A DNA stretch of 47,150 bases, taken from NCBI GenBank assembly GCA_028278605.1, contig JANQEB010000025.1, positions 1 to 47,150 on the forward strand. The letters run 5' to 3'. The DNA is from Candidatus Gastranaerophilales bacterium. GTDB taxonomy: Bacteria; Cyanobacteriota; Vampirovibrionia; Gastranaerophilales; UBA9971. Numbering within the stretch: the stretch's first letter is position 1; each line of letters opens with the position of its first letter. Below are positions 6,872 through 47,150 of this stretch, in pieces. The position numbers were made by a program, and so were the translations under genes. A model generated the notes under the pieces. It saw nothing but the letters and a program-made list of their open reading frames with translations. It ran no database searches and had not been told where the DNA came from.

Positions 6872-7672
6872 ATGGATAAGAATCGAGTGAATGAAATTAA
6901 AGAAGACATAAAAGAAATTGAGACGATTATAGAAAATTGTGGGGAGCAAAGATTTTATACCTTTATACTGTCTGCGAATTCAGCAAAAGAGCTTAAGCGA
7001 GCCTTAGGGCATCAGTTAGAGATGACGAATAAGGGAGAAGTTTGCAGCCCTGTGTATGGTAGAGTCTTTAACGGTATACCGATATCTATGATAGAGGGGA
7101 CTATCACAGTGAACAACTCAGATTATTTCAGAGTGAACCTAAATGACCTTGAAGCCAAAATTGAAAAGGATGGAGAGGAACTAGCATGGGGGCACCCAAG
7201 CTTAGAATCCTTTCTTAATGCTGTGGGCGAAGTTATAGAGCCAAGAAAAGAAAGAGAAATACCACCTCACCACAAAGGGACATTTCTGGAGAAGATGGCA
7301 GAACTTAAGCTAGATGATAACATAGTCTCTATTGTATCTAAACTGATTGACCTTGTTCCTAAAGATAAATGGCCTGATGAGTGTGTGTCTACCTATCCGG
7401 AATATCTTCGATTAGATTGGATTCAGTATGGGGCTACTATAATAATGAGTGTTGATCCCGAAAAGACTCTTGATGTAGTGTTATACATAAAAAACATACA
7501 TGAGTTAGATATACCCCCGTCAGCAATGGATATATGTCTTGCCATCCAAGACTATTTAGGTTTTCAAAGTGTAGGTGTTGTGAAAGGCCGGGATGAGGAA
7601 GAATACAAGAATTTAAATGAAGAACTTAACGCCGAATTTGCTAAAGATACTAATATTATGATAAATGATTGA
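6872..7672 (+). CDS. Hypothetical protein
   Basis: AAGGGG RBS. 266-aa acidic protein. Last gene of the leftward-module operon. Confidence 0.5.
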   Translation: MDKNRVNEIKEDIKEIETIIENCGEQRFYTFILSANSAKELKRALGHQLEMTNKGEVCSPVYGRVFNGIPISMIEGTITVNNSDYFRVNLNDLEAKIEKDGEELAWGHPSLESFLNAVGEVIEPRKEREIPPHHKGTFLEKMAELKLDDNIVSIVSKLIDLVPKDKWPDECVSTYPEYLRLDWIQYGATIIMSVDPEKTLDVVLYIKNIHELDIPPSAMDICLAIQDYLGFQSVGVVKGRDEEEYKNLNEELNAEFAKDTNIMIND

Positions 7673-7730
7673 AGCCCTATCTATACAACTCAAAATAGGC
7701 CAATCCAACAAGTTCCCTATGGAGCCTCTT

Positions 7731-7756
7731 AGCCCTGCGAAAGTGGGGCTTTTTTG
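7731..7756 (+). terminator. Rho-independent terminator
   Basis: AGCCCT-gcgaaagt-GGGGCT stem followed by TTTTTT. Confidence 0.75.
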
Positions 7757-7892
7757 TGTCTTATTGGCGCCTATAAACCACATGGGACTAGGTATAAAAA
7801 ATCAAGCGGTAGGACGAAGATATTTTATTTGTTGTATATCTGTCTAATTTTTTTATAAATGATCTTAAACATTAATTGCCCTACCGCCCGAT

Positions 7893-7943
7893 TTAAATGC
7901 TGCTAGAGGTGGGATACTGGAACTCCTCGTATCTTTCTAGCAT
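7893..7943 (-). CDS. Micro-ORF B1 (16 aa, MLERYEEFQYPTSSSI)
   Basis: ATG lies 8 nt downstream of GGAGG within AAAGGAGGTGA (7949-7959 on +). Homologous to micro-ORF B2. Confidence 0.45.
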   Translation of the reverse strand: MLERYEEFQYPTSSSI

Positions 7944-7987
7944 AGGCCTCACCTCCTTTGTGGCTTAATTTAATCTGCTACAACAGA

Positions 7988-8095
7988 TTAGCGCCGGGGA
8001 ATTTTTGTTAAAAATAAGGCCCGATCCCCACCCAACCACCCACGGATCATTTTTGCCTGATTAGCTAACTCTTGCACTTGTTTTGCTAATGGCAT
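7988..8095 (-). CDS. Micro-ORF A1 (35 aa, MPLAKQVQELANQAKMIRGWLGGDRALFLTKIPRR)
   Basis: ATG lies 8 nt downstream of GGAGG within AAAGGAGGTGA (8101-8111 on +). The leader is paralogous to the one at 10277-10345. Confidence 0.5.
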   Translation of the reverse strand: MPLAKQVQELANQAKMIRGWLGGDRALFLTKIPRR

Positions 8096-8101
8096 AGGCC
8101 T

Positions 8102-8152
8102 CACCTCCTTTTTGATTTATTTAAGACATAATTCAGAGGGGAGGTGTTTTTT
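8102..8152 (-). promoter_or_regulatory. Hairpin pairing CACCTCC with the micro-ORF A1 Shine-Dalgarno; reads as a terminator-like hairpin plus T6 on the + strand
   Basis: CACCTCC (8102-8108) pairs with GGAGGTG (8140-8146). T6 at 8147-8152. Conserved at 10284-10333. Confidence 0.5.
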
Positions 8153-8185
8153 AAAGCATTATATAATTTTATAAAAATGTATGTC

Positions 8186-8212
8186 TTTTAAAAGAGAGGG
8201 CCGAGAAGGCCC
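8186..8212 (-). terminator. Rho-independent terminator of the lipoprotein gene
   Basis: On the minus strand, GGGCC-ttctc-GGCCC followed by TCTCTTTT, starting 7 nt after the stop codon. Confidence 0.7.
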
Positions 8213-8218
8213 TTAAGA

Positions 8219-8752
8219 TTAATATTTTTTGTAGAAGTCTAGAAAACGTTGTTTGTTTTCTTCTGTTAACTCAGACTCTACAAAGGATTTAGAACCCATT
8301 ATACGGATTTCTGTTTTTTTTGATTCCCCGATTTCACGCAACAATTCTCTTTGTATGTCGTAGTATGCATATTCATAGACTTTGTTGCCAACCATATTCC
8401 TACTGTTGACAGATCCAGTCTCAGTCTTTAAGGCGTATGATTTTCCATCAACTAGTAGGTCCATGGATTCACCTGGTTTGATAAACATCCAATCAAGGTC
8501 TTCATAAACAACAAAAAAACTATAATCATTATGGTTGGTTGTTGTTACAATCTTCACTGCGTTTAGCTCCATTTTCCTAGCAGCTAGCCCAGCGCCTCTA
8601 GCCCAACTTTCACTTCCTGCAAAGTTAAGATAGTTGTTTTCCATAGCATATGAATGGGTACCTTTATACTTATCTTTGCTTTCTCTTACTGAATATGCAT
8701 TGCATCCTACTGCAATTAGCAGGATGCCCACCGTAAAAAATTTAATCATCAA
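8219..8752 (-). CDS. Putative lipoprotein (the only long minus-strand gene)
   Basis: AGGAGG RBS 6 nt upstream of ATG. Signal peptide with lipobox-like LIAVGC. Confidence 0.7.
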   Translation of the reverse strand: MMIKFFTVGILLIAVGCNAYSVRESKDKYKGTHSYAMENNYLNFAGSESWARGAGLAARKMELNAVKIVTTTNHNDYSFFVVYEDLDWMFIKPGESMDLLVDGKSYALKTETGSVNSRNMVGNKVYEYAYYDIQRELLREIGESKKTEIRIMGSKSFVESELTEENKQRFLDFYKKY

Positions 8753-8790
8753 TATCCTCCTGTGTTGACGTAAGAATCCCTTACGCCACA

Positions 8791-8892
8791 GTTAGCACGC
8801 CTCTAGATATTAATCACAGGATCAAATATTTAGAGATCCCCATGACACAAGGGACTCTTACGGACCTGTGATTACTAAGAGACGGTGCTAAC
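8791..8892 (-). promoter_or_regulatory. About 100-nt extended imperfect hairpin in the 5' leader of the lipoprotein gene
   Basis: Arms gttagcacgcctct/agagacggtgctaac, taatcacagg/cctgtgatta (10 bp perfect) and agagatcccc/gggactct. A C-A mismatch on + becomes a G-U pair on the minus RNA. Confidence 0.5.
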
Positions 8893-8902
8893 GTCTAAAC
8901 GT

Positions 8903-8940
8903 ATTATAAGAATGTACTAAAAAAAGCAACAAAAAATTGT
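8903..8940 (-). promoter_or_regulatory. Candidate sigma70-type promoter for the lipoprotein gene
   Basis: On the minus strand, a perfect TATAAT (8903-8908) with a TTGTTG/TTGCTT-like -35 at 15-18 nt spacing. Confidence 0.4.
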
Positions 8941-8994
8941 AGCGAAGGATAAAAAAGTTAATGACATACTGGGACAAGTGTGTATATTAGATAT

Positions 8995-9894
8995 ATGGAA
9001 TTTAAATCATTACTAGAGTTACTCGCCTATTTTAAAGATGAGAGTGTTTGCAAGGAATATTTAGAACGGATGCGATGGGGTGGTACAATCCAATGTCCCC
9101 ATTGCGGTAATCACAAGATTTATAGGACGAATCGAGGTTTTAAATGTGCGGGGTGCTCTAAAAAGTTCTCGGTAACATCAGGCACTATTTTTGAAAATAC
9201 AAAACTACCATTGAAGACTTGGTTCGCAGCTATTTATTTATGCACTGCCCATAAGAAGGGTATCAGTTCAACGCAGCTTCACAGAGATTTAGGTATTAGC
9301 CAAAAAACAGCATGGTTTTTATTGCACAGGATACGACAAATAATGCAAGATGATTCTTCAATCGAAGGTATTGTAGAAGTGGATGAAACTTATGTCGGTG
9401 GCAATATGTTAAATAAGCCAAAGTCTCAAAGGATCAAAAACGCCCAGGGTCGCAGCCTTTCTCATAAGCAGCCGGTTGTGGGGATATTGGGCAGAGACAA
9501 TAAAGTTGTAGCTAAACCTATTCCAGATTCGACAGCGAAGACCTTGAAGCGGGAAATAGCATCCTACGTCAAATCAGGTTCTACGGTTATTACAGACTCC
9601 TGGAAGGGATATAAAAACTTAAACTTGATGTACGACCATCAAGTTGTCGATCACTCTAAAGATGAATTTGTCAAAGGCTCTTATCATATAAATTCTGTAG
9701 AAGGGTTCTTTTCAATGCTCAAAAGAGGTATTATAGGCATTTATCACGCAATTAGTAAAAAGCATTTACACAGATATTGTCATGAATTTTCTTATCGCTA
9801 CAATACCAGAGAAATCAAAGACTGTGAAAGATTCCAGGATGTGTTCTCAAATATCAAATGCAGGCTGACTTACAAGGGCTTGATTCATGAGTAA
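8995..9894 (+). CDS. IS1595-family (ISXO2-like) DDE transposase
   Basis: N-terminal zinc ribbon CPHCG...CAGCSKKFSVTSGTIFENTKLPLKTWF. DDE core VEVDETYVGG...ITDSWKGY...HINSVEGFFSMLKRG...HLHRYCHEFSYRYN. A GTG at 8980 is also possible as start. Confidence 0.9.
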   Translation: MEFKSLLELLAYFKDESVCKEYLERMRWGGTIQCPHCGNHKIYRTNRGFKCAGCSKKFSVTSGTIFENTKLPLKTWFAAIYLCTAHKKGISSTQLHRDLGISQKTAWFLLHRIRQIMQDDSSIEGIVEVDETYVGGNMLNKPKSQRIKNAQGRSLSHKQPVVGILGRDNKVVAKPIPDSTAKTLKREIASYVKSGSTVITDSWKGYKNLNLMYDHQVVDHSKDEFVKGSYHINSVEGFFSMLKRGIIGIYHAISKKHLHRYCHEFSYRYNTREIKDCERFQDVFSNIKCRLTYKGLIHE

Positions 9895-10015
9895 GAAGAA
9901 AAAGAAGATAAAAAAAGTCGAGCGACCGGATAAATATGAAGAAAAACTCAAGCTTGATATGTCTTTTGACGAAGCTATCAAAAAGATGATCAAAAAGAAA
10001 GTAAAGAAAAAATAA
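9887..10015 (+). CDS. Possible 42-aa lysine-rich peptide overlapping the transposase stop
   Basis: ATG 9887 overlaps the transposase 3' end. MSKKKKKIKKVERPDKYEEKLKLDMSFDEAIKKMIKKKVKKK. No clear RBS. Confidence 0.25.
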   Translation: MSKKKKKIKKVERPDKYEEKLKLDMSFDEAIKKMIKKKVKKK

Positions 10016-10037
10016 TTTTACTTTTATATATGTAAGT

Positions 10038-10063
10038 AAAATTAATAATGCCCCGTGAGGGGC
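10038..10063 (-). terminator. Rho-independent terminator of micro-ORF cassette 2
   Basis: On the minus strand, GCCCC-tcac-GGGGC followed by ATTATTAATTTT, 13 nt after the B2 stop. Confidence 0.55.
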
Positions 10064-10076
10064 GCCTTGACCCACC

Positions 10077-10139
10077 CTACCACCCATATGTCATGTTAGT
10101 GTTGGTGGGGTATTCTTGTGAAAAGAAACGATCCATCAT
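10077..10139 (-). CDS. Micro-ORF B2 (20 aa, MMDRFFSQEYPTNTNMTYGW)
   Basis: ATG lies 9 nt downstream of GGAGG within AAAGGAGGTAA. Homologous to B1. Confidence 0.45.
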   Translation of the reverse strand: MMDRFFSQEYPTNTNMTYGW

Positions 10140-10192
10140 TGGGCATTACCTCCTTTTGTTTTGGATTTCCTCTGCTACCACAGGGAAGTTTC

Positions 10193-10276
10193 TTAACCCG
10201 CCCTTCCGCCCACTGCCATCTTAGGCATAAATGAAAAATTCTTGTTTGCATTGGGTGCAAATTTTTCAACAGCCAT
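10193..10276 (-). CDS. Micro-ORF A2 (27 aa, MAVEKFAPNANKNFSFMPKMAVGGRAG)
   Basis: ATG lies 8 nt downstream of GGAGG within AAAGGAGGTAA. Conserved leader and hairpin upstream. Confidence 0.5.
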   Translation of the reverse strand: MAVEKFAPNANKNFSFMPKMAVGGRAG

Positions 10277-10283
10277 TGGCGTT

Positions 10284-10333
10284 ACCTCCTTTTTAAATTA
10301 TTTGAGACATAATGCAAAGGGGAGGTGTTTTTT
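10284..10333 (-). promoter_or_regulatory. Second copy of the Shine-Dalgarno-pairing / terminator-like hairpin
   Basis: ACCTCC (10284-10289) pairs with GGAGGT (10321-10326). T6 at 10328-10333. By hand alignment, 63 of 73 leader positions match copy 1. Confidence 0.5.
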
Positions 10334-10417
10334 AAAGCCTTATATATTTTACAAAATTTATAACCTGTCCCATCTAGTCTATAGTCGCCAACTCGACACA
10401 CTGTCGTACATTTTTGG

Positions 10418-10443
10418 TTGACAATCTAATTCAGTGTTATAAT
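10418..10443 (+). promoter_or_regulatory. Extended -10 promoter of the long rightward operon
   Basis: TGtTATAAT (10435-10443). TTGACA at 10418-10423 is only 14 nt upstream. Palindrome CGACAcacTGTCG lies just upstream. Confidence 0.55.
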
Positions 10444-10457
10444 GTCGCCCATACTTT

Positions 10458-10619
10458 ATGGAAAAGAAAATTAAAACTAAACGGATACATATTAGGATCC
10501 CAGAGGATTTACTAGTTGACCTGCAGAAGATTGCGAAAATCAAGAAACTTAAAGTGTCAACATTGGCGCGATTTTATCTTGACCGAGGAGTCCTCGAAGA
10601 CTTAACCCGCCATTCATGA
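10458..10619 (+). CDS. Ribbon-helix-helix (CopG/Arc-like) DNA-binding protein, 53 aa
   Basis: Not in the ORF track (<60 aa). MEKKIKTKRIHIRIPEDLLVDLQKIAKIKKLKVSTLARFYLDRGV shows a beta-strand plus two-helix RHH pattern. First gene after the promoter. Confidence 0.6.
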   Translation: MEKKIKTKRIHIRIPEDLLVDLQKIAKIKKLKVSTLARFYLDRGVLEDLTRHS

Positions 10620-11242: not shown

Positions 11243-11701
11243 TTGGATACAGAATTTGAAAGGTTTGATCACTTCCTAAATTTGATAGGGGTTAATAAGA
11301 GGGTTTTGTCTGTGATGATAGGGAAAAACATCACCTATGTTTCCAAGGTACACAAAAACAGGTCTGAACTTCCTAGCTCAATCGTTTCATTCTTAGAGGA
11401 AAGATATTCTTTAAATAGACAATGGCTTACCCATGGCATTGGGCAACCTCTTATCGTGAAAGATCAAACATTGTCTCAGAAAATAGTCCTATGTTTCAAG
11501 TGCACTAATCGGATTTTCTCAAATTTGCTTGTAGTTAGAGGTAATAACTATCATGAGTATTGCTATATTGGTAAGAGGTGTGCATATTGCCGCGAAGTGG
11601 GACCGGTTTATCAGAAAAATTTATGTAAAAAATGCCTAATGTCCAGACTATCAGAAGTTAGGAATATTATGAACGAATCGCACGCATTGGCTACAAGATG
11701 A
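11243..11701 (+). CDS. Phage CI-repressor-like HTH protein with a Cys-rich C-terminus
   Basis: TTG start 7 nt after TAGGAG. HTH segment KRVLSVMIGKNITYVSKVHKN ending in the NRQWLTHGIG signature. Four CxxC-type pairs at the C-terminus. Confidence 0.55.
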   Translation: MDTEFERFDHFLNLIGVNKRVLSVMIGKNITYVSKVHKNRSELPSSIVSFLEERYSLNRQWLTHGIGQPLIVKDQTLSQKIVLCFKCTNRIFSNLLVVRGNNYHEYCYIGKRCAYCREVGPVYQKNLCKKCLMSRLSEVRNIMNESHALATR

Positions 11702-12576
11702 ATATTGTTGAAAAGATAGAATACTATTTGTATCGTTTACGGTGGTGGTTGGGATTCAGAACACACCTTGATATTGAGTTGAACAATGACTGTAATCATA
11801 GGTGCGTGATGTGTTGGTGGGGTGCCCCAGGTGGGCCAGGTTTTGAAAAAGGTCAAATGAAACTTGCACAGGCTGTTAGGTATTTAATTGAAGGCCGAAT
11901 TCATGGTTATGTGTCAGTAAAGTGCAACTTTAGAGGTGAGCCCACCTTGTATAAAGACTTGGTTCATTTTGTTAAGAAGGCTAAGAATTTGGGTTATACA
12001 GATATAATGATGAACTCAAATGGAGTCTTAATGAAAGATAAGTTTGCATCTCTCAGAGATGCGGGGTTAACAACCATAATAATATCTTTGGGTGCGATAG
12101 ACAAGGACGCTTACTCTAAATTGCACAAGGTTAAAGACAAGCATTACTACAGGCTACATGAATCATTAGAATACATGCACGAAAACCAAGGCAATGTCAA
12201 AGTCAAATTAAATTGCCATGAATCAAAAACTAGTGATTTTGACTATTTTTGGATAAAGAGAAAATATCCTAATTTTTTTATAGTTAAACGGCATTTAATG
12301 GAGAGAGAAGGCGAAGACTTGTCTATTCCGATGATTAGAGAAAGAAAAAAGATGTGTCCCCATCTCAAAAGGAGAATGCTAATTACGCAAAACGGGAAGT
12401 TTTATCCATGTTGCATGGCGTATAATGAACCAGATGATATATTGCTTGGCTACAATTTTGAGGATGCTTTAAAGAATAGGAAACAATTAATTAAGGCGTA
12501 TAGAGAAGGTATACTCCTTCCATCATGTGTGAAATGCCCAAGCCAGGATGTATACAAGGTGAAGGTTTCAATATGA
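11698..12576 (+). CDS. Radical SAM enzyme with a SPASM/twitch-like C-terminal domain
   Basis: CNHRCVMC matches CX3CX2C. C-terminus CPHLKRRMLITQNGKFYPC matches CX12GX4C, followed by CVKC. Confidence 0.8.
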   Translation: MNIVEKIEYYLYRLRWWLGFRTHLDIELNNDCNHRCVMCWWGAPGGPGFEKGQMKLAQAVRYLIEGRIHGYVSVKCNFRGEPTLYKDLVHFVKKAKNLGYTDIMMNSNGVLMKDKFASLRDAGLTTIIISLGAIDKDAYSKLHKVKDKHYYRLHESLEYMHENQGNVKVKLNCHESKTSDFDYFWIKRKYPNFFIVKRHLMEREGEDLSIPMIRERKKMCPHLKRRMLITQNGKFYPCCMAYNEPDDILLGYNFEDALKNRKQLIKAYREGILLPSCVKCPSQDVYKVKVSI

Positions 12577-13874
12577 AAACTGCTGTCATTATATGTGTTA
12601 GGTCTGGGAGTAATCGTATTGAAAACAAATTGCTCGCCACTGTGAAGAGTGGTGACTTCCTTCGCTTAACTCTAGAAGAATGTATAGAGAGGGTCTCTGG
12701 CTTTGATGTAATATTAGCCATCCCGGAAGGTGATCCAATACAAGATGCCTTAATTGGGAATTCTAATATTTATGATATATTTACTGGGAATCCAAGCTCG
12801 CCATTGCATAGAATGTGGTACGCGGCCATCGCTAATAGTGTAGATACTATAATAAGGGTTACTGCTGATGATATCTTTGTAGACAGTGAATTGCTTAGAA
12901 AGCAACTAGCTTACCACCATAAGCAGAATAACGATTACACGTATATGGGGAATTGCCCCCAGGGGGTGGCTGCTGAAATAATATCTTTCAAGGCTCTTGA
13001 TAAAATAGCAACTGAGCATGATGAGCCAATTGAATTTACGTCTTATTATTTAAAAAAACCAGGATTTAAGTATAGTGAATATGTTCCACCTAAAGAATAT
13101 CAGCACCGGTTTAGACTTGAGCTGGATTATCCAGAGGACTTAACCCTAATTAGGGTTATTTATTCTTTACTTGGCGATAATTTCGGGACTCTGGATATAA
13201 TAAATTTACTTAAAAGGCACCCTGAGTTAATCGATATTAATAGACTGCCATTGATAACGTTTTACACATGCAACAAGAACTATGGTAAATACATAAGAGA
13301 GTGCATCTTATCAGTAGTTAGCCAGGGTTTGTTTGATCATTCTGAGTACATAATCTTGGATGATAAATCAACCGATGATAGTACGGCTGTAATACTTGAA
13401 ACGATTTCAGGGCTGCCAGAACATCAAAAGTCTCGGATTAGGGTATACAGAAACCCTGAGAACCTGGGCCTTTCTCAGTCTTCAAACAAGTGCCTACATC
13501 TAGCTAAAGGTAGATATGTAATGAGAGTTGATTCTGATGATTACTTACTTCCTGGCGCTGCCAATAGGATGTTAATTAATTTGAAACATGATTTTGGGGG
13601 CATAGTTTCGGGTTACACAAGGGATGGAATGGAATGCAAAGAAAAGCACCTTCATTCAGGATGCGCATTGCTTGAAAAGAGGCTGGCTTTAGAATTGCAG
13701 TATAAAGAAAACCCAGGTTACGGCGCAGCATTTATGAAAAGATTTGAAGAGAAATATAAGGTCGGGTTTATTGAAGAACCTTTATGGCATTATAGAAAAC
13801 ATGCAAATTCAATAAAGGCAAAAAACGGTGACATGACTATGACATCATTAAACCCAGCGGAGGCAGGAAAGTGA
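12573..13874 (+). CDS. Fusion of a cytidylyltransferase (NeuA/SpsF/KdsB-like) with a family-2 glycosyltransferase
   Basis: ATGA overlap start. N-terminus AVIICVRSGSNRIENK...IIRVTADDIFVD. C-terminus ITFYTCNKNYGKYI...ILDDKSTDDS...RVDSDD (DXD). Confidence 0.75.
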   Translation: MKTAVIICVRSGSNRIENKLLATVKSGDFLRLTLEECIERVSGFDVILAIPEGDPIQDALIGNSNIYDIFTGNPSSPLHRMWYAAIANSVDTIIRVTADDIFVDSELLRKQLAYHHKQNNDYTYMGNCPQGVAAEIISFKALDKIATEHDEPIEFTSYYLKKPGFKYSEYVPPKEYQHRFRLELDYPEDLTLIRVIYSLLGDNFGTLDIINLLKRHPELIDINRLPLITFYTCNKNYGKYIRECILSVVSQGLFDHSEYIILDDKSTDDSTAVILETISGLPEHQKSRIRVYRNPENLGLSQSSNKCLHLAKGRYVMRVDSDDYLLPGAANRMLINLKHDFGGIVSGYTRDGMECKEKHLHSGCALLEKRLALELQYKENPGYGAAFMKRFEEKYKVGFIEEPLWHYRKHANSIKAKNGDMTMTSLNPAEAGK

Positions 13875-14731
13875 AAGTAATGATAACAGGAAGTGAAGGA
13901 TTTGTGGGTAAGGCACTCAAACAAAGACTCAAGTCTTTAGACCACGAGGTTATTGATTTTGATTGGAAGGTCTACAGAAATGATTTAGTTGAAGATGTGA
14001 ATATACTAAGCTATAAAATTGGAGAGTCTGGCATGGTTATTCACTCAGCAGCTATAGCAGATTTGAATATTGTAGAAAAGGACCAGGATCAAGCATTCCA
14101 CACTAATGTAGAAGGGACTTATAATGTTGTGAAGTATTGCAGAATGCACGAAAAACCAATGATTTATATTTCAACATGCTGTGTCTATGGGGATGCGCAT
14201 AAAAATAATTATATTGTTCATGAGGGGACAAACCCCGAGCCTATAGAATTTTACGCACGCACAAAATACGCAGCAGAGCCAATTGTCCAAGAGCTAGACA
14301 GGCATGTAATATGTCGGTTAGGGACAGTTTACGGACCAGGAATGAGGCCCGCACTTTTTAACTATAAAATATTGGACTGTGCTTTGAATAATAAAGAATT
14401 TGTAATTAATGGTGATGGGCATCATTCAAGGTTTTATATTTTTATAGACGATTTAGTTGATGCGCTTGTTTCCACAATAACCAAGTTTCCGAATAAAGAA
14501 ATTTTAAATTTGTGCGGAGAAGAGAAAGTCTCTTTGAATAAAGTTTTATCAATAGTGTCAGAAATAACAGGTAAGGATTTAAAATATACACATGGTCCAG
14601 CTAGGCACTTAGGCGATGTAGATGAAAACATGAATAATATAAAAACACAAGAGTTAATTGATTGGATCCCTAAAACCTCATACAAAGAAGGCATGATTAA
14701 AACGAAGGAGCACTTTTGGCCCAATCTGTAA
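13871..14731 (+). CDS. NAD-dependent sugar epimerase/dehydratase (extended SDR)
   Basis: GSEGFVG Rossmann motif and YARTK (YxxxK) catalytic motif. Confidence 0.8.
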   Translation: MKVMITGSEGFVGKALKQRLKSLDHEVIDFDWKVYRNDLVEDVNILSYKIGESGMVIHSAAIADLNIVEKDQDQAFHTNVEGTYNVVKYCRMHEKPMIYISTCCVYGDAHKNNYIVHEGTNPEPIEFYARTKYAAEPIVQELDRHVICRLGTVYGPGMRPALFNYKILDCALNNKEFVINGDGHHSRFYIFIDDLVDALVSTITKFPNKEILNLCGEEKVSLNKVLSIVSEITGKDLKYTHGPARHLGDVDENMNNIKTQELIDWIPKTSYKEGMIKTKEHFWPNL

Positions 14732-14994
14732 TTACAACTAATCTTGAGGATTTTGAAAAGAAGTTGCTTTCTATTCAGATACCCAATCTCTTAAGACTAA
14801 TTGAGGGCATCGCTAAGTTAGTTAGAACGGCTAGTTTAGATAAGAGCTTGCCGGATGAATGCATATTGGACTTGCTTAGGAAGGAAACAAAGATAACTGC
14901 AGAACTAATGAGGCGAGGTTATTTAAAAAAAGAAGAATACCAGCAATTTGAGGCATGGCGTAAGGGACTTGGATATAAGAAGAGGTTTTATTGA
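14716..14994 (+). CDS. Hypothetical protein
   Basis: TTG start 7 nt after GAAGGAG. Lies within the sugar operon. Confidence 0.4.
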   Translation: MAQSVITTNLEDFEKKLLSIQIPNLLRLIEGIAKLVRTASLDKSLPDECILDLLRKETKITAELMRRGYLKKEEYQQFEAWRKGLGYKKRFY

Positions 14995-15701
14995 TGTATA
15001 TCGCTGGGAACTGTCTAATGAATCCAGGGGAAGAGGATCATGTCTTCAACACAGCCAAGGAGCTTAAAGGGTTTATTGATATTTTTAGAGTTAAACTATG
15101 GGGTGGAGGCACTAAGCTAGACAGATACTATCCTGGTATCGGTGAAGACGGGATTAAAACTTTGTATCGCATAAACAAGGAATTACATATTCCTGTGATT
15201 ACAGAAGTTCACACCCCTCAGCAGGTCAAACTTTGCTCTGGACTTGTAGGGGTTTGGATAGGTGCTAGGAATTCAATGAACTACTCATTGCTTGAGTCCA
15301 GCAAGATAATGAGAAATGTATTCATAAAAAGGATGCCGAACATGACAATTGCACAGGTGATAGATATGTATAATATCATGTTAAATAAGCATGGTGTCGT
15401 TCCTTGGATGATTGAACGAGGTATAGATACTAACGATAAAGATTATGGTAGATGGACGCCAGACATTAAGATTGCAATGGTTTTAAAAAGGCATTTCCCA
15501 GAAATGTTTAGTCGATTTGTGGTCGATTGTTCACATTCAGCAGGCCAAAAGGATTTTGTAAAAGATGTCTACAAGGCGTTTAGGGCAATCGGTGTTAGGA
15601 ACTTTATGTTCGAATGTACTTATAATGGGATAAGTAAAACTGACCAGACGCACATGTTGTCGGTATCAGAATTTAAAGAGATAACAAAAGAAGCAAGCTA
15701 G
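14994..15701 (+). CDS. 3-deoxy-ulosonate-phosphate synthase (DAHP synthase type I-beta / KDO8P synthase family)
   Basis: IGARNSMNYSLLE, FIKRMPNMTI, MIERGIDT and VVDCSHSAG correspond to the family signatures IGARNMQNF, KRG, CERGIRT and DPSHA. Confidence 0.7.
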   Translation: MYIAGNCLMNPGEEDHVFNTAKELKGFIDIFRVKLWGGGTKLDRYYPGIGEDGIKTLYRINKELHIPVITEVHTPQQVKLCSGLVGVWIGARNSMNYSLLESSKIMRNVFIKRMPNMTIAQVIDMYNIMLNKHGVVPWMIERGIDTNDKDYGRWTPDIKIAMVLKRHFPEMFSRFVVDCSHSAGQKDFVKDVYKAFRAIGVRNFMFECTYNGISKTDQTHMLSVSEFKEITKEAS

Positions 15702-15710
15702 GAGTTTAAG

Positions 15711-17102
15711 ATGAGAGAACCTATAAAATGTTCAATATGTGATTCAGAAGATTGGCATAATTTAGATAATTTGAGAGACCCGAAATATTGGTATAACCAA
15801 AATATGATTGAACTTCATAATGATTACAAGACTGACCCTGGTCAATTTGATGTTGATGTCAGGGATGGCAAGGTTAGGTTTAACCCGATTGGGTTCAAGG
15901 TATGTAAATCTTGTGGCTATTTAACATATGATTACCCTGAAAATATCGAAGATCAATACGATAAGCAGAGAGACTTTATCAGGGTAATGAATATTGTAAC
16001 AAATAATAGAAAAATAAGAAAGCATGAAAAATTCTTAAAAGAGATTTTTGATGAATTGTCGCCGTCTCAGAATGGCAGAGGATTTTCGTCGAAAGTCTTA
16101 GATGTCGGGTGCGCCCAAGGTACTTTTTTAAAGTACATAAAAGATCGTTGCAATTTGGATAATAGCAATGTCTTTGGAACAGAGTTTTCAAGCGCAGCCA
16201 GAGAATTCGGGAAAAATTACTATGGTCTAAATATAGTCAAAGATATCTCTCAGGTAGATAAATCCGAAAGATTTGATCTAATTTCATATTATCATGTTAT
16301 CGAACATGTGGAGCATCCAGATAGGGAACTTTTGAGAATTAGAAATTATCTAAAAAAAGATGGTTATTTATACATGTCTATACCTCATTGGTGTGAAAGA
16401 CTGGAAGAGGCTAGCGGTGCTATTTGTGACTCATTTGAAAATCTTTACCACTTGAACCATATAAATTGTTTTACATTTCATTCATTCGAGAACCTCATAA
16501 AGAAGTGCGGATTTGAAATCGTTAAATCTGATGACCAGATGTATGGCTATACTGTTTTATGCAAGATGGTCGATATCCCTGAAAAATTTAAGCCTATCCA
16601 GGAAAATTACAAGGAGATTATCAAAAGCCTAAAATCCCAAAAAGAAGCTATCAACATGTTCGTTCAAAAGAAATATGATGAAGCGCTAAAAGTTTACAAG
16701 AATTTTCCAGATGCTTACATTATGAAGTCTATCGATCAAAGGAATAATAAAAGCTTCGAAATGCAAGACCAAATATTAGTAGAAGGGTTGAAGAATTGCA
16801 GAGACTCTCTTAAAATAAGAGAACAGAGGGCAGCTATAAGAATGCAATGGGACGGAAATGTCGAGGGAGAATTTGGGGTTTACACAAATAGAGTCAAAGA
16901 GGCTGAACACATACTCACGGCTTTATTAGAAGAGCATCCCTCAGAACAATATTATTTCTCCTTAGCTGTAATTGAAGGCAAATACAAAAAAGACTACGGG
17001 AAGGCCATTAAGTACTTAGAGGAAGTTATTGAAATCAACCCCATGAGAATAGGCGAATGCATGAATATGGTTGGTCAATTTTATAGCAGGGGGACGACAT
17101 GA
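15711..17102 (+). CDS. Class I SAM-dependent methyltransferase with an N-terminal zinc ribbon and a TPR-like C-terminus
   Basis: AGGAG RBS. Motif I VLDVGCAQGTF. CSIC...CKSCG. Helical-repeat C-terminal third. Confidence 0.7.
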   Translation: MREPIKCSICDSEDWHNLDNLRDPKYWYNQNMIELHNDYKTDPGQFDVDVRDGKVRFNPIGFKVCKSCGYLTYDYPENIEDQYDKQRDFIRVMNIVTNNRKIRKHEKFLKEIFDELSPSQNGRGFSSKVLDVGCAQGTFLKYIKDRCNLDNSNVFGTEFSSAAREFGKNYYGLNIVKDISQVDKSERFDLISYYHVIEHVEHPDRELLRIRNYLKKDGYLYMSIPHWCERLEEASGAICDSFENLYHLNHINCFTFHSFENLIKKCGFEIVKSDDQMYGYTVLCKMVDIPEKFKPIQENYKEIIKSLKSQKEAINMFVQKKYDEALKVYKNFPDAYIMKSIDQRNNKSFEMQDQILVEGLKNCRDSLKIREQRAAIRMQWDGNVEGEFGVYTNRVKEAEHILTALLEEHPSEQYYFSLAVIEGKYKKDYGKAIKYLEEVIEINPMRIGECMNMVGQFYSRGTT

Positions 17103-22389: not shown

Positions 22390-24696
22390 ATGGCCAGTAA
22401 GACATTTAACCAAGAAGTGAAATATTCTGAGGCTCAGACAGAAACTACTGAGATTGTAAAGATGGATTATGACACTAAGGAGTATGATGGCAAGGAAGGC
22501 TTTGAGCTTAAGAAGATAGAGCCTACTGCAGATCTATTCAAAGAAACTACAAGGGCTAATTCTACCCTGTACGACGACTATAATTTTAGGCCATACAATC
22601 CTGATGAGCTATACCAGAAAACAGGCAATTATGACTACTTCGATGAGATGAAAGAAGATGATCAAATAGCAGCATCTTTACATCTTAAGAAGCTGATGAT
22701 TACAGACAGTGATTTTGAGATATTCTTTGAAGGCGACGATATACCCGAAGAGCAGCAAGAGGAAATCACCGACTTTATCATGAAGAATCTGAATAGCCTA
22801 GATAAGCCGTTTTCTAGTAAGCTGTATGACATATTGTCTGGTATAGAGTACGGATTTAGCCTGACAGAGCCAGTATTTGCAGTTAAGCCATTTGAGGGCA
22901 AGGACAAGATATGGCTAGATAAAATGAAGACTAGAGCACCTCATGGGTTTACACTTGTTCAGGAAGAGAATGGCGACCTAAAAGAGATTCTACAGGACCA
23001 GGGTGGCGAAGAGAAATCTATTAGGCCTGAAAAACTTATTCATTATATCAACCAGGGCGAATTTGATAATCCCTATGGTAAGAGTGAGCTCAATAAAGGT
23101 GTCTATACGTCATGGTGGTCAAAAGAGCAAATTGTTAAGTTTTGGAATATATTTTTAGAGAAATTCGGGTCACCTACCCCTATAGGTAAATACGGTGCGA
23201 ATTATGCAGGCAAGCAAGATAAGTTATTATCTGTTTTGAAGAACATACAGGCTACTTCTGCCATTGTTATTCCCGAAGGTGTGGATATCTCTGTACTAGA
23301 GAAACACGCAGATGGTGGTGGCGACCAATTCAAGCAAAGAATAGACCATGCTAATATGATGATAGCTAGAAAAATGCTACTGCCTGATCTAATGGGTATG
23401 AGTGGCGAGGCAACTAGCGGTGGTAGTTTTGCATTAGGTAAAGAACATTTCGGCATGTTTTGGTCTGTAGTAGAAAGTGTCCAGTCTGCATTAGAGATGC
23501 TCATAAATACTAAAATTGTGGATAATTTGGTAGCGTGGAATTACGGCGACTTTAGGGTTAAGTTCAAGTTTAAAAAAGCCGACGATGAGAAGAGGCAAAA
23601 AAATCTAGAGTTATTTTTACAGTTTATTAATACAGCGGGTATTATTTCTCCAGAGCATAGGAAGTGGTTTAATCAACAAATTGACGCGCCTATCGAAGAA
23701 ACTTTACCTGAAGAGGATCCGAATCAAGAAGAAGACCCAGAAAACCCAGATGACCCTAATGACCCAGACGAGGAATCAGAAGGCAAGCCAGACGGGGACG
23801 AGGAAGAAACGCCCGATAAAGAAGATGCTCCAGATGAAGAGGAAGACGAAAAAGAAGAGTTGACTCAAAAAAAAAAGGCAGAACTTTACGCCAAATTTGA
23901 CCCAAATAAAATAAAGAGTGATTTCGATAATCTAGAACGCAGTCTTACAAGTAAGCTCAGAACAGCCACCCAGAGGCAAGTTAGAGATATTCTAGAGCAA
24001 GTCGATACTATAGAGTTTATTGATCAGATAGACGATATTGATGTATCTATTGATGAGACTGCCGATTTAATAGGTACCCATGTGGAGAGGTCTTTTGAAA
24101 AAGGTACGGTGTCTGTCACTAAGCAACAAAACTTTACTCTATCTGATGAAGAAATAAAGGCATGGTTTGATAACTATAATTTTGATTTAGCTACCGAAGA
24201 GGCTAACTATTTACTTCGAGTATCTAAGCCAATTGTAGCGGATGGATTAAGGAATGGTGACAGTAATATTAAAATTAAAAGGATGATTAGAGACACATTA
24301 GCTAAAGGCAATGTTTTAAATAACAGGATAAATACTCTTGTTAGGACAGCCACCTCTACGGCATATAATGAGGCCCGAATTAGGCAGTTTGAAGAAATAG
24401 AGGACGAAATCATAGCTTATGAATTTGACGCTATTCTTGATCATAGAACTAGCCCAATTTGCAATCATTTTGACGGTATGCAATTCAAGGTTGGAGATGG
24501 CAGGACGGTTAACCCGCCTCTTCATTTTAATTGCAGGTCTGTTTTAAGAGCTCTGACTAGGGGTGATGAGGCAGAGAGAAAAGACAGACTTGATAAAGTG
24601 CCTAATAGCGTCCCTGTGCAAAAAGCAGATGGCAGGATAGTCAACAAGCCACTTGAGAGGCAGGGCAATTTTTTTGTTGTCAAGACGAAAAAGTAA
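22390..24696 (+). CDS. Portal protein (Mu gp29/DUF935-like) fused to a Mu F / SPP1 gp7-like head morphogenesis domain
   Basis: GAGGTGA RBS. 768 aa. Acidic linker EEDPNQEEDPENPDDPNDPDEE. C-terminal DHRTSPICNHFDG...PPLHFNCRSVL signature. Confidence 0.8.
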   Translation: MASKTFNQEVKYSEAQTETTEIVKMDYDTKEYDGKEGFELKKIEPTADLFKETTRANSTLYDDYNFRPYNPDELYQKTGNYDYFDEMKEDDQIAASLHLKKLMITDSDFEIFFEGDDIPEEQQEEITDFIMKNLNSLDKPFSSKLYDILSGIEYGFSLTEPVFAVKPFEGKDKIWLDKMKTRAPHGFTLVQEENGDLKEILQDQGGEEKSIRPEKLIHYINQGEFDNPYGKSELNKGVYTSWWSKEQIVKFWNIFLEKFGSPTPIGKYGANYAGKQDKLLSVLKNIQATSAIVIPEGVDISVLEKHADGGGDQFKQRIDHANMMIARKMLLPDLMGMSGEATSGGSFALGKEHFGMFWSVVESVQSALEMLINTKIVDNLVAWNYGDFRVKFKFKKADDEKRQKNLELFLQFINTAGIISPEHRKWFNQQIDAPIEETLPEEDPNQEEDPENPDDPNDPDEESEGKPDGDEEETPDKEDAPDEEEDEKEELTQKKKAELYAKFDPNKIKSDFDNLERSLTSKLRTATQRQVRDILEQVDTIEFIDQIDDIDVSIDETADLIGTHVERSFEKGTVSVTKQQNFTLSDEEIKAWFDNYNFDLATEEANYLLRVSKPIVADGLRNGDSNIKIKRMIRDTLAKGNVLNNRINTLVRTATSTAYNEARIRQFEEIEDEIIAYEFDAILDHRTSPICNHFDGMQFKVGDGRTVNPPLHFNCRSVLRALTRGDEAERKDRLDKVPNSVPVQKADGRIVNKPLERQGNFFVVKTKK

Positions 24697-46568: not shown

Positions 46569-47024
46569 ATGAGAGATCCAGTTTTCACAGGTTACATACG
46601 GCACGACAACAAGAAGTTTTTCTTCAACGCTGGTCAGAAGCAAAAAATGGAGAAGTACATCATGTCGTTAAACAAATCATCAAGTGATGACGTTGACGCA
46701 TACATGATGGTCAAGATCGTTAAGCAAAAAAGAAGTGTTCAGCATAATAATTTATACTACTTGAGAAGAGATATTTTATCACGACACACAGGCATGCATC
46801 CAGACGATTTGCACTCTTACTGTCTCGAAAGATGCGGGTTTGGCGAGTACAAAGACGTTGGTGGAAAGACACGTTTTTCACGTGCTTCTAGCGCAGATTT
46901 GTCGACTCAAGAATTCAGTTCGTTGGTAAGAGTTCAGCAAGATATAGCGAATGAATTAAACCTAGGTCTCGACAAGGATAGACATTTGATCTTACCAGGA
47001 GAGGATGACTTTGAAAGGAGGTGA
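46569..47024 (+). CDS. NinB/Orf-like recombination mediator
   Basis: KRSVQHNNLYYLRRDILS...SRASSADLSTQEFSSLV parallels lambda NinB RSLDQNRKLWACLGDVS...STSRMRVGEFAEL. Confidence 0.5.
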   Translation: MRDPVFTGYIRHDNKKFFFNAGQKQKMEKYIMSLNKSSSDDVDAYMMVKIVKQKRSVQHNNLYYLRRDILSRHTGMHPDDLHSYCLERCGFGEYKDVGGKTRFSRASSADLSTQEFSSLVRVQQDIANELNLGLDKDRHLILPGEDDFERR

Positions 47025-47027
47025 CAT

Positions 47028-47150
47028 ATGAAAGACTATAGAGAGTTGCAAGAGGTAATCAGGCAGAAAGATTTAGAGATAAGCACGTTGAACGTAATGG
47101 TCAATCATCTTAAAGCAGTGAGCGAGTTAGACAAAAACATTATAGAGAGA
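47028..47150 (+). CDS. 5' part of the junction-spanning coiled-coil protein (continues at 1..213)
   Basis: ATG follows AAAGGAGGTGA (47014-47024). The frame is open to the window end and in phase with position 1. Confidence 0.6.
   Translation, partial: MKDYRELQEVIRQKDLEISTLNVMVNHLKAVSELDKNIIER
47052..47150. repeat. Terminal direct repeat, copy 2 (identical to 1..99)
   Basis: Direct comparison of both ends. Confidence 0.95.

Follow-up and report, generated by a model that had tools for sequence, protein, structure and literature searches.

In Bacillus subtilis, ribosomes held on a Shine-Dalgarno (SD) sequence with an 11/12 match shield the polycistronic messenger RNA (mRNA) of the yrzI/spyTA locus, whose very short open reading frames (micro-ORFs) encode SpyT (49 amino acids, aa) and SpyA (17 aa), from RNase J1 (PMC12067863). 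Polycistronic micro-ORFs and exceptionally strong SDs, the latter as in other Stab-SD 5' stabilisers (hbs, cryIIIA), are also seen in two minus-strand cassettes, A and B, in a 47,150-nucleotide (nt) stretch of DNA (contig JANQEB010000025.1, recorded under Candidatus Gastranaerophilales bacterium and referred to here as the window). Each cassette carries two micro-ORFs behind extreme SDs, and every SD is followed at a near-fixed distance by a conserved guanine-rich sequence that we call the G-box.

By architecture, the closest functional analogue of these cassettes is taken to be the ribosome-protected micro-ORF mRNA of the spyTA/Stab-SD type. The spyTA mRNA is stable, short and capped by a terminator, and the cassettes likewise have predicted terminators; spyTA differs in being chromosomal and in having no G-box, no four-fold module and no leader that masks the SD. 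With leader-peptide attenuators and arrest peptides such as ermC, tnaC and secM, the cassettes share an ORF of ~20 codons, a putative ribosome stop near its end, nearby alternative hairpins, a terminator and an SD sequestered by an upstream complement. Unlike those systems, the cassettes have no conserved arrest peptide, the stall signal would be the mRNA and not the nascent chain, and no clear regulated gene lies downstream: cassette B has none, and the transposase gene stands between cassette A and the lipoprotein gene. The cassettes are a variation on this small-ORF or leader-cistron theme.

The evidence, drawn from sequence comparison and prediction, indicates that each unit combines a translated micro-ORF with a nucleic-acid signal. 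We consider it probable that the units are functional and translated. The complete proposal, in which the G-box of a translated micro-ORF module would act as a frame-independent roadblock for the ribosome or for RNA polymerase, is a serious possibility that we advance tentatively.

Four copies of one module

The motif AAAGGAGGTRA occurs five times in the window against 0.11 occurrences expected from shuffles. Four copies, all within the cassettes, lie on the minus strand and were located by motif scan: AAAGGAGGTAA at 10282..10292 (SD1 of cassette A) and 10146..10156 (SD2), and AAAGGAGGTGA at 8101..8111 (SD1 of cassette B) and 7949..7959 (SD2). The original prediction had placed these sites 8-9 nt before ATG codons at 10276, 10139, 8095 and 7943 and had seen a single further 11-mer at a start, ATG 47028; both statements hold, and the fifth copy (47014-47024, plus) marks the start of an ordinary plus-strand gene. 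Against the canonical 16S tail, which may not be that of the host, AAGGAGGUGA (B1 and B2) complements 10 consecutive nt, just short of the spyTA-type criterion of at least 11/12, and AAGGAGGUAA (A1 and A2) has one internal mismatch.

The predicted ORF lengths and peptides were recovered as well, all on the minus strand. Cassette B encodes B1 (35 codons, 7988..8095, MPLAKQVQELANQAKMIRGWLGGDRALFLTKIPRR), which is in the ORF list and was called by a gene caller in a public collection, and B2 (16 codons, 7893..7943, MLERYEEFQYPTSSSI), whose TAA stop directly follows an in-frame ATT. Cassette A encodes A1 (27 codons, 10193..10276, MAVEKFAPNANKNFSFMPKMAVGGRAG), also from the ORF list, with an in-frame ATG 8 nt before its box, and A2 (20 codons, 10077..10139, MMDRFFSQEYPTNTNMTYGW), which resembles B2 in frame 0.

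Every one of the four SDs is followed by GGGYGGWWGGGY(GGG). The pattern matches at 7876-7889, 8028-8041, 10072-10085 and 10198-10211, with 0.00 matches expected from shuffles; SD start and box start are 70, 70, 71 and 81 nt apart, A1 carrying an 11-nt insertion, and successive boxes are spaced by 126, 152 and ~2045 nt. For the module as a whole the box is given as GGGYGGWWGGGYGGG, 5-7 nt after an in-frame RUG, AUU or AUA codon. Taken singly on the minus strand, the A1 box (GGGCGGAAGGGCGGG, 10197..10211) is read in frame b as GGRAG and then a stop, the A2 box (GGGTGGTAGGGTGGG, 10071..10085) contains the A2 TAG stop, the B1 box (GGGTGGTTGGGTGGG(G), 8027..8041) is read in frame a as GWLGG, and the degenerate B2 box (GGGCGGTAGGGCAAT, 7875..7889) lies wholly after the B2 stop. 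The A1, A2 and B1 boxes are the only G3-N-G2-N-G3-N-G2+ motifs on either strand of the 47 kb.

Since the G-box lies at a near-fixed distance from every SD, the locus consists of one ~95-nt module present four times, in two tandem pairs. The earlier view of two paralogous minus-strand cassettes is supported; the conserved unit proposed with it, a first plus a second ORF, gives way to the four-fold module of SD, ~15 variable codons and G-box. The most conserved parts of this module are nucleotide motifs, which are read in differing frames or located after a stop, and the first-ORF peptides (A1 and B1) are of unequal length and unalignable.

The conserved G-box matched nothing in Rfam, in protein-family libraries or in the papers searched, a literature search for its sequence returning only quadruplex chemistry papers. 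Resemblances to a T-box (GGGUGGUA), a C/D-box or K-turn, a T7-like promoter and a Chi site were considered and dropped, since half of the boxes have C at the Y position, the window encodes no matching RNA polymerase and Rfam gives no support.

Reading frame and relatives on other phage contigs

Alignment of 19 units on the box, four from the window and 15 from viral or metagenomic contigs outside it (labelled with L-numbers), reveals a constraint that depends on the reading frame. The in-frame codon starting 8-10 nt before the box is ATG, GTG, ATT or ATA in 14/19 units (4/4 in the window, 10/15 elsewhere), and out-of-frame triplets at the same place qualify in 1/38 (Fisher p=2e-8). The offset of this codon (-9, -8 or -10) tracks the frame set by the distant start codon, an offset that only translation can impose. 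All five Val at this position are encoded by GTG and Leu is absent, so the constraint looks like an RUG triplet and not like a hydrophobic residue. A second line of evidence comes from A2 and B2, which score 36 (BLOSUM62) when compared in frame 0, against 3 and 5 out of frame (column-shuffle p=0.00025), and whose shared Arg is encoded CGT versus AGA. The motif M[ML][DE]R[FY]xxx[EQ]YPT... reported earlier for these second ORFs is correct, and on this comparison the second peptide is the only one constrained as an amino-acid sequence.

Stop triplets cluster around the same codon. It is usually followed by A, which makes RTGA a TGA in the +1 frame (the window units, L004, L005, L010, L014 and L016); an in-frame TAA directly follows it in B2, L013 and L127; and a stop triplet is at or overlaps it in 13/15 units (14 family members and box 3 of L004).

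The relatives were found through pattern scans for an SD and then a box, which gave six viral and 11 metagenomic loci; L002 (a repeat protein) and L008 and L012 (membrane-protein genes) were rejected as chance matches. The module, with its extreme or super-SD, ~15 variable codons and G-box, is present on about ten unrelated metagenomic phage contigs, and the family members L004, L005, L010, L013, L014, L015, L016, L017 and L127 carry it in sense orientation among small early-region phage genes. Features that the patterns did not force include a start codon after the SD, an ORF of 14-35 codons and, in 5/11 metagenome matches, the YGGG(CA) continuation of the box. The ORF stops -6 to +51 nt from the box start, with the exception of unit 2 of L004, which runs in frame into a 112-aa gene product; the L004 micro-ORF stop overlaps the next ATG, and three relatives have an upstream gene whose end (...ERR*) falls within the SD. 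L004 has its three boxes in a span of 670 nt, repeated at gene junctions, so this window is not alone in carrying several copies per phage.

Beyond these contigs, the SD with the full box gave 11 matches in 596 Gb of GTDB bacterial and archaeal genomes, all GC-rich and chance-like. In IMG/VR the box alone gave mostly GC-rich coding matches, with an SD present only at L005 and L045, and the leader pattern and B-peptide pattern gave 0 matches. The idea that GCC after the SD is special was rejected, as AAGGAGGTGATGCC is a common phage SD, and ARAGORN did not confirm the tRNA-like look of the sequence after the L016 unit.

As judged from these sequences, the box is conserved as nucleotides and not as a peptide. 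Depending on the unit it is read as G-[WR]-x-G-G, G-G-[RW]-[AV]-G or W-V-V-G-[WR] (frames a, b and c); in B2, L013 and L127 the whole box is downstream of the stop, and in A2 and L016 half of it is. This property bears directly on the possibility that the cassettes are plain bicistronic operons for small proteins, either a SpyT/SpyA-like toxin and antidote or host-takeover micro-proteins, with a box that merely encodes a Gly/Trp/Arg-rich C-terminus. Such operons would account for the extreme SDs and correct ATG spacing, for the amino-acid constraint between A2 and B2, for the in-frame M/V/I codon and for the gene call at B1, and they have a precedent in the 49-aa and 17-aa peptides and 11/12 SD of spyTA. 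They would not account for a box kept in three frames and beyond three stops, for ORF1 peptides that differ in length and cannot be aligned, or for a Val that is always GTG with no Leu, which argues for an RUG triplet; moreover, a PHROG search of the micro-ORF peptides gave no match with E below 0.06, and hydrophobic helices are absent. We regard this explanation as unlikely.

The peptide classes that had been suggested for the cassettes also find little footing here. A precursor of a ribosomally synthesised and post-translationally modified peptide would call for a maturase, and the sole radical SAM/SPASM gene (11698-12576, plus) lies 1.3 kb away on the opposite strand in a sugar-nucleotide cluster. 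Its protein falls below every NCBIfam cut-off (PqqE, WgkB and PapB models 31-34 bits, against cut-offs of at least 340), and no maturase gene is evident among the ORFs listed at the relatives' loci, for which no maturase-family scan was made. The peptides are polar and have no signal peptide, which speaks against a secreted or signalling role, and they have no hydrophobic helix, which speaks against a small toxin. A type I toxin was rejected on similar grounds, the peptides being polar without a hydrophobic stretch and no convergent promoter or antisense partner being evident.

A further alternative places the function, if any, in the DNA: the boxes could be protein-binding or recombination sites, or the cassettes could be degenerating copies that date from the rearrangement which introduced the lipoprotein gene and insertion sequence between them. 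The cassettes are indeed direct repeats that bracket the lipoprotein and IS1595 transposase genes, B2 is degenerate (an early stop and a lost fourth G tract), A1 has its 11-nt insertion, and the L004 box recurs at gene junctions. Selective retention of SD, ATG, RUG and box amid spacers that are saturated with changes is difficult to reconcile with decay, a dependence on reading frame cannot arise from a DNA-only site, and the box spacings are unlike those of iterons. We consider this alternative very unlikely.

Two sets of side observations were made on the contigs searched. In the GC-rich phages L020, L027, L033 and L044 (IMG/VR), a conserved ~60-nt intergenic element, CCATAGGGTGGTAGGGTGGGCAGGCATCCAGCGAGGATTTACTCCCGCTGGGATATGGGGAAAGGTGG, stands just after a capsid-like gene and holds an identical 15-nt G-box, then a hairpin of a G-run and a C-run, with no Rfam match; the viral contig L027 also has a c-di-GMP-II-GAG riboswitch aptamer at 7608-7690 (44.3 bits, above the gathering score). 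The unrelated contigs L127 (minus, from 1840) and L059 (from 9431) have similar Cys-rich micro-ORFs of ~21-26 residues behind AAGGAGGTGATGCC, and their peptides, MTACGKCGQVHVPGETCPLSV and MTICGACGRQHPPTAYCGDYSNLPVM, look zinc-ribbon-like and may form a small peptide family.

Leaders, terminators and the putative roadblock

The cassette leaders form a direct repeat (8081-8169 and 10262-10350) with 83% identity over 89 nt, in agreement with the 63/73 positions counted earlier by hand. That the leaders are 83% identical beside unalignable ORF1 sequences points to selection or gene conversion acting on the leader, SDs and boxes and not on ORF1. In each leader a minus-strand 5' hairpin is predicted that occludes SD1: (C)ACCUCC : GGAGGU at 10284..10326 in cassette A (-14.2 kcal/mol, z -2.8), which is also in the full-length fold, and CACCUCC : GGAGGUG at 8102..8146 in cassette B (-17.0 kcal/mol, z -4.0), which is also in the cassette fold. 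The 7-bp 5'-terminal pairing CACCUCC : GGAGGUG of both cassettes is shared with SD-sequestering 5' hairpins such as RNA thermometers and 5' stabiliser stem-loops; in contrast to these, the loop of the cassette leader is 27-31 nt long and itself conserved, and there is no ROSE or fourU signature and no Rfam match.

Cassette B has a promoter-like site, AAGACA-18-TATAAT (8158..8187, minus), that scores 10/12 in a consensus scan. The putative promoter of cassette A (10339..10370, minus) aligns with it and has a -10-like TATAAG at 10339-10344 and a GACA-containing -35-like element upstream; the scan did not report it, so this promoter is weaker or uncertain. Thus, for the -10-like elements described earlier, TATAAT in B lies within a promoter-like site and TATAAG in A has no such backing. 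Both cassettes have predicted terminators. In cassette A, GCCCC-UCAC-GGGGC precedes AUUAUUAAUU (10040..10063, minus), an intrinsic terminator; in cassette B, fold and sequence reading give a long terminator-like hairpin, GGCGGUAGG : CCUACCGC, then UUGAUUUUUU (7796..7891, minus), of which the B2 box is predicted to be the 5' arm. The notion of self-contained minus-strand units accordingly stands for the terminators and for the promoter-like site of B, and is less secure for the start of A.

Intercistronic hairpins, also described earlier, are present as sequence in both cassettes: CCCUGUGGUAGCAGAGG, i.e. CCCTGTGG..CAGAGG, at 10170..10185 (minus) in A, preceded by a C-rich ACUUCC able to pair with SD2, and AAUCUG-UUGUAG-CAGAUU at 7972..7989 (minus) in B, overlapping the B1 stop codon. 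Their thermodynamic support is weak (z -1.3 and -0.3). The A2 SD2 spacer AAUGCCC can pair with GGGCAUU of the cassette A terminator. A conserved closing stem, GAUGCC/GGGCAU, was rejected; it is found only in A1, A2, B1, L005, L010 and L016, is marginal against shuffles and has no RNAalifold consensus.

Could the cassettes be non-coding regulatory RNAs of ~300 nt that act in trans, either by sequestering, as sponges or decoys, a factor with affinity for GGAGG or G-rich RNA, or through anti-SD pairing of the leader with mRNAs, with incidental ORFs? Conservation is highest in the leader and the nucleotide motifs, each unit is self-contained, bounded by a 5' hairpin and a terminator, and the whole-cassette fold of B is unusual (z -4.7). 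The fold of A is not (z -1.0), RNAalifold found no conserved Watson-Crick structure across 14 units, and Rfam gave no match at gathering score over the whole window and only chance-level matches (E >= 0.88) for region 7700-10500 at E up to 10. The rule for the in-frame codon requires translation, as does the resemblance of A2 to B2 in frame 0 only, and a purely non-coding role is therefore highly improbable in our view. The lack of both an RNAalifold structure and an Rfam match suggests that the G-box is a linear or tetraplex motif and not part of a folded-RNA family.

A tetraplex is consistent with the layout of the box. The A1, A2 and B1 boxes share with parallel short-loop G-quadruplexes, G-vacancy types included, their four G tracts and loops of 1, 2 and 1 nt, and all box variation in the family falls at loop positions (Y, WW, Y). 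ViennaRNA with G-quadruplexes places a two-layer quadruplex at A1 and at B1 in the full-length minimum-energy fold and gives the A2 box alone -4.8 kcal/mol as a quadruplex. We take the A2 box to be the MYC Pu22 core (TGAGGGTGGGTAGGGTGGGTAA) minus one G; the boxes differ from Pu22-type quadruplexes in a second tract that is always GG and not GGG, and their quadruplexes are predicted ones. In bacterial or phage mRNAs, a quadruplex that closes a micro-ORF is not known to us.

The box also resembles a transcriptional pause. The ops element is a 12-nt non-template sequence, GGCGGTAGnnTG, and an exemplar of the consensus pause G(-10)/Y(-1)/G(+1); known sites are in untranslated, SD-less leaders of long operons, and RfaH recruitment requires ops G5, T6 and A7, with A7T abolishing and T6A reducing it in E. 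coli (PMC5995543). The box consensus GGYGGTWGGGYG fits the 7 invariant positions, has Y or W at the other three specified ones and includes the G(-10), Y(-1), G(+1) signature. The number of specified ops positions matched is 10/10 in L004 boxes 2 and 3 (GGCGGTAGGGTG), 9/10 in A2 (GGTGGTAGGGTG) and 8/10 in B2 (GGCGGTAGGGCA), A1 (GGCGGAAGGGCG, T6A) and B1 (GGTGGTTGGGTG, A7T). Unlike ops, the box varies at positions 3, 6, 7 and 11, and it is inside or just after a micro-ORF behind an 11-nt SD and is followed by terminators, where ops has an SD-less leader.

From this likeness it could be argued that the G-box is an ops-like pause and loading site for a NusG paralogue on the non-template strand. 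Polymerase would pause ~65 nt after the start codon, the ribosome from the super-SD would catch up, and the coupled or modified complex would read through terminators, for instance to the lipoprotein gene behind cassette A. The position-by-position alignment of GG-Y-GG-T-W-GGG-Y-G with ops12 GGCGGTAGCGTG and with the pause signature, together with the high scores of the L004 and A2 boxes, is in its favour, as are a Y at position 3 that would keep a C:G or T.G pair with G8, the terminators after both cassettes and the location of other phages' units upstream of same-strand genes. Positions 6 and 7, however, vary (TA, TT, AA, AT, CA) where A7T and T6A impair RfaH recruitment in E. coli, and the setting in or after a super-SD micro-ORF is not that of the known SD-less sites. 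A Pfam scan of 37 non-structural window proteins lists no NGN/KOW (NusG-like) family among its top 25. Cassette B is followed by no gene on its own strand, and the scheme does not predict the frame dependence of RUG. We judge this scheme distinctly unlikely.

The roadblock proposal that we favour would work as follows. Each cassette would be a self-contained minus-strand transcription unit of ~0.3 kb in a moron-like island, made up of two tandem ~95-nt modules, each with an SD of 9-10 nt 16S complementarity, a start codon 8-9 nt on, ~15 free codons, an in-frame AUG/GUG/AUU/AUA and the G-box. Host RNA polymerase would transcribe the cassette, as the promoter and terminator predictions suggest, and the predicted 5'-terminal hairpin CACCUCC : GGAGGU(G) would mask the first SD and cap the 5' end. 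Upon opening of this hairpin, the 30S subunit would bind the extreme SD tightly and the micro-ORF would be translated, as the reading-frame statistics imply. The G-box would then serve as a cis roadblock, by way of an RNA G-quadruplex, a run of rare GGG/CGG/AGG/UGG codons or an ops-like polymerase pause, and would hold the ribosome with the in-frame RUG codon at the decoding centre and close to the stop. A ribosome that meets a roadblock 5-7 nt after a codon would have that codon in its decoding centre, and the quadruplex and ops readings predict the same geometry. A distance of 5-7 nt also separates the A-site codon from the downstream structure at frameshift sites. Owing to its extreme SD and 5' hairpin, the RNA would persist and stay loaded with ribosomes, for which the spyTA mRNA is the precedent; the result would be a small RNA that is heavily occupied by ribosomes, shielded from nucleases and translated into very short peptides. 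We infer the transcription, the stall, the stabilisation and any trans function.

A more specific form of this mechanism is a 'ribosome trap', in which the extreme SD loads a ribosome that a G-vacancy-type quadruplex (G3-G2-G3-G3) or an ops-like paused polymerase would stop in any frame with RUG in the decoding centre. It would be an early-region phage device that sets RNA stability or transcription-translation coupling of neighbouring genes, here present as free-standing RNAs. Conservation of the GG tract raises the possibility that guanine nucleotides influence the block. At this level of detail the idea is speculative and we think it rather improbable.

Several points weigh against the roadblock proposal. 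The roadblock step is one that we purely infer; ViennaRNA models two-layer quadruplexes only, the full-length fold has the A2 box base-paired to a CCCACC upstream of it and not in a quadruplex, and the B2 box is without a fourth G tract. The outside members were found with patterns that force the SD and part of the box, so the association between the two is partly a matter of ascertainment. Boxes also occur without a nearby SD (L004 box 3, L178, L179/L180), and of 117 occurrences of the plain 14-mer super-SD AAGGAGGTGATGCC, which is common in phages, just one (L127) precedes a box. The ORF lengths of 16-35 codons, the frame change in A1 and the early stop in B2 could reflect decay instead, and the promoter of cassette A is weak. 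The 16S tail, RNases and any NusG paralogues of the host are assumed.

The minority-strand island and the wider meaning

The window is a phage genome. It encodes a fusion of portal and head-morphogenesis domains (22390-24696), with a portal ~30% identical to those of Bacillus-type siphoviruses, as well as an M15 endolysin, a DnaB-like helicase and an Mgm101/Rad52-like annealing protein with a PDDEXK nuclease. A 98-nt terminal repeat (1-98 = 47053-47150) indicates that the record was circularly assembled and is probably complete at ~47.05 kb; the gene starting at 47028 runs past the window end and resumes at its start. Genes are in near-total plus-strand orientation with ordinary GGAG-type SDs, and GC skew is reversed across the island at 7672-10458. 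This island comprises cassette B, the lipoprotein gene (8222-8749, minus), the IS1595-family transposase gene (8980-9894, plus), a 42-codon Lys-rich ORF (9887-10015) that overlaps the transposase gene end and has an AT-rich perfect palindrome next to it (10013-10044), and cassette A. No terminal inverted repeats of the IS1595 element were detected (8980-10047), and no tRNA or tmRNA was found in the whole window.

Searches by blastn of the island and of each cassette against phage and plasmid collections gave no match, and when the flanking 266-aa protein and the lipoprotein were compared with 5.8 billion clustered proteins and with IMG/VR, each matched only itself. Judged by these searches, the phage lineage is isolated, with cassette-adjoining proteins that have no homologue and DNA that has no phage or plasmid match. 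The best plasmid matches of the IS1595 transposase include Entomospira and Bacteroides, and the former hints at a possible spirochaete host.

Two neighbouring features are recorded here. The 5' untranslated region of the lipoprotein gene (8753-8900, minus) has interleaved inverted repeats, 8865-8877/8808-8820 (13 nt, 92%) and 8849-8862/8769-8782 (14 nt, 93%), in the order a, b, a', b', which would form a pseudoknot or mutually exclusive structures just upstream of an AGGAGGA SD; they have no Rfam match. The phage-borne sugar-nucleotide cluster (11698-17102, plus) is led by the radical SAM/SPASM protein and also encodes a cytidylyltransferase-GT2 glycosyltransferase fusion, an SDR epimerase/dehydratase, a DAHP/KDO8P-synthase-family enzyme and a methyltransferase, its first two proteins having weak matches to a 'spiro-SPASM' model.

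Should the proposed mechanism hold, the module would be a compact signal, operating in any frame, that couples an extreme ribosome-binding site to a defined stall site. To our knowledge, such control by an SD plus a stall site has not been described for phages. The finding bears on the annotation of very short ORFs, on the use of RNA quadruplexes or ops-like pauses beyond the few known bacterial cases, and on how phages may stabilise or time their early transcripts. The ~14 units from 10 phages provide a test set, for which the proposal predicts that ribosome density lies ~12 nt before the box. Were the peptides themselves the products, A2 and B2 would represent a new family of phage micro-proteins of 16-20 residues.

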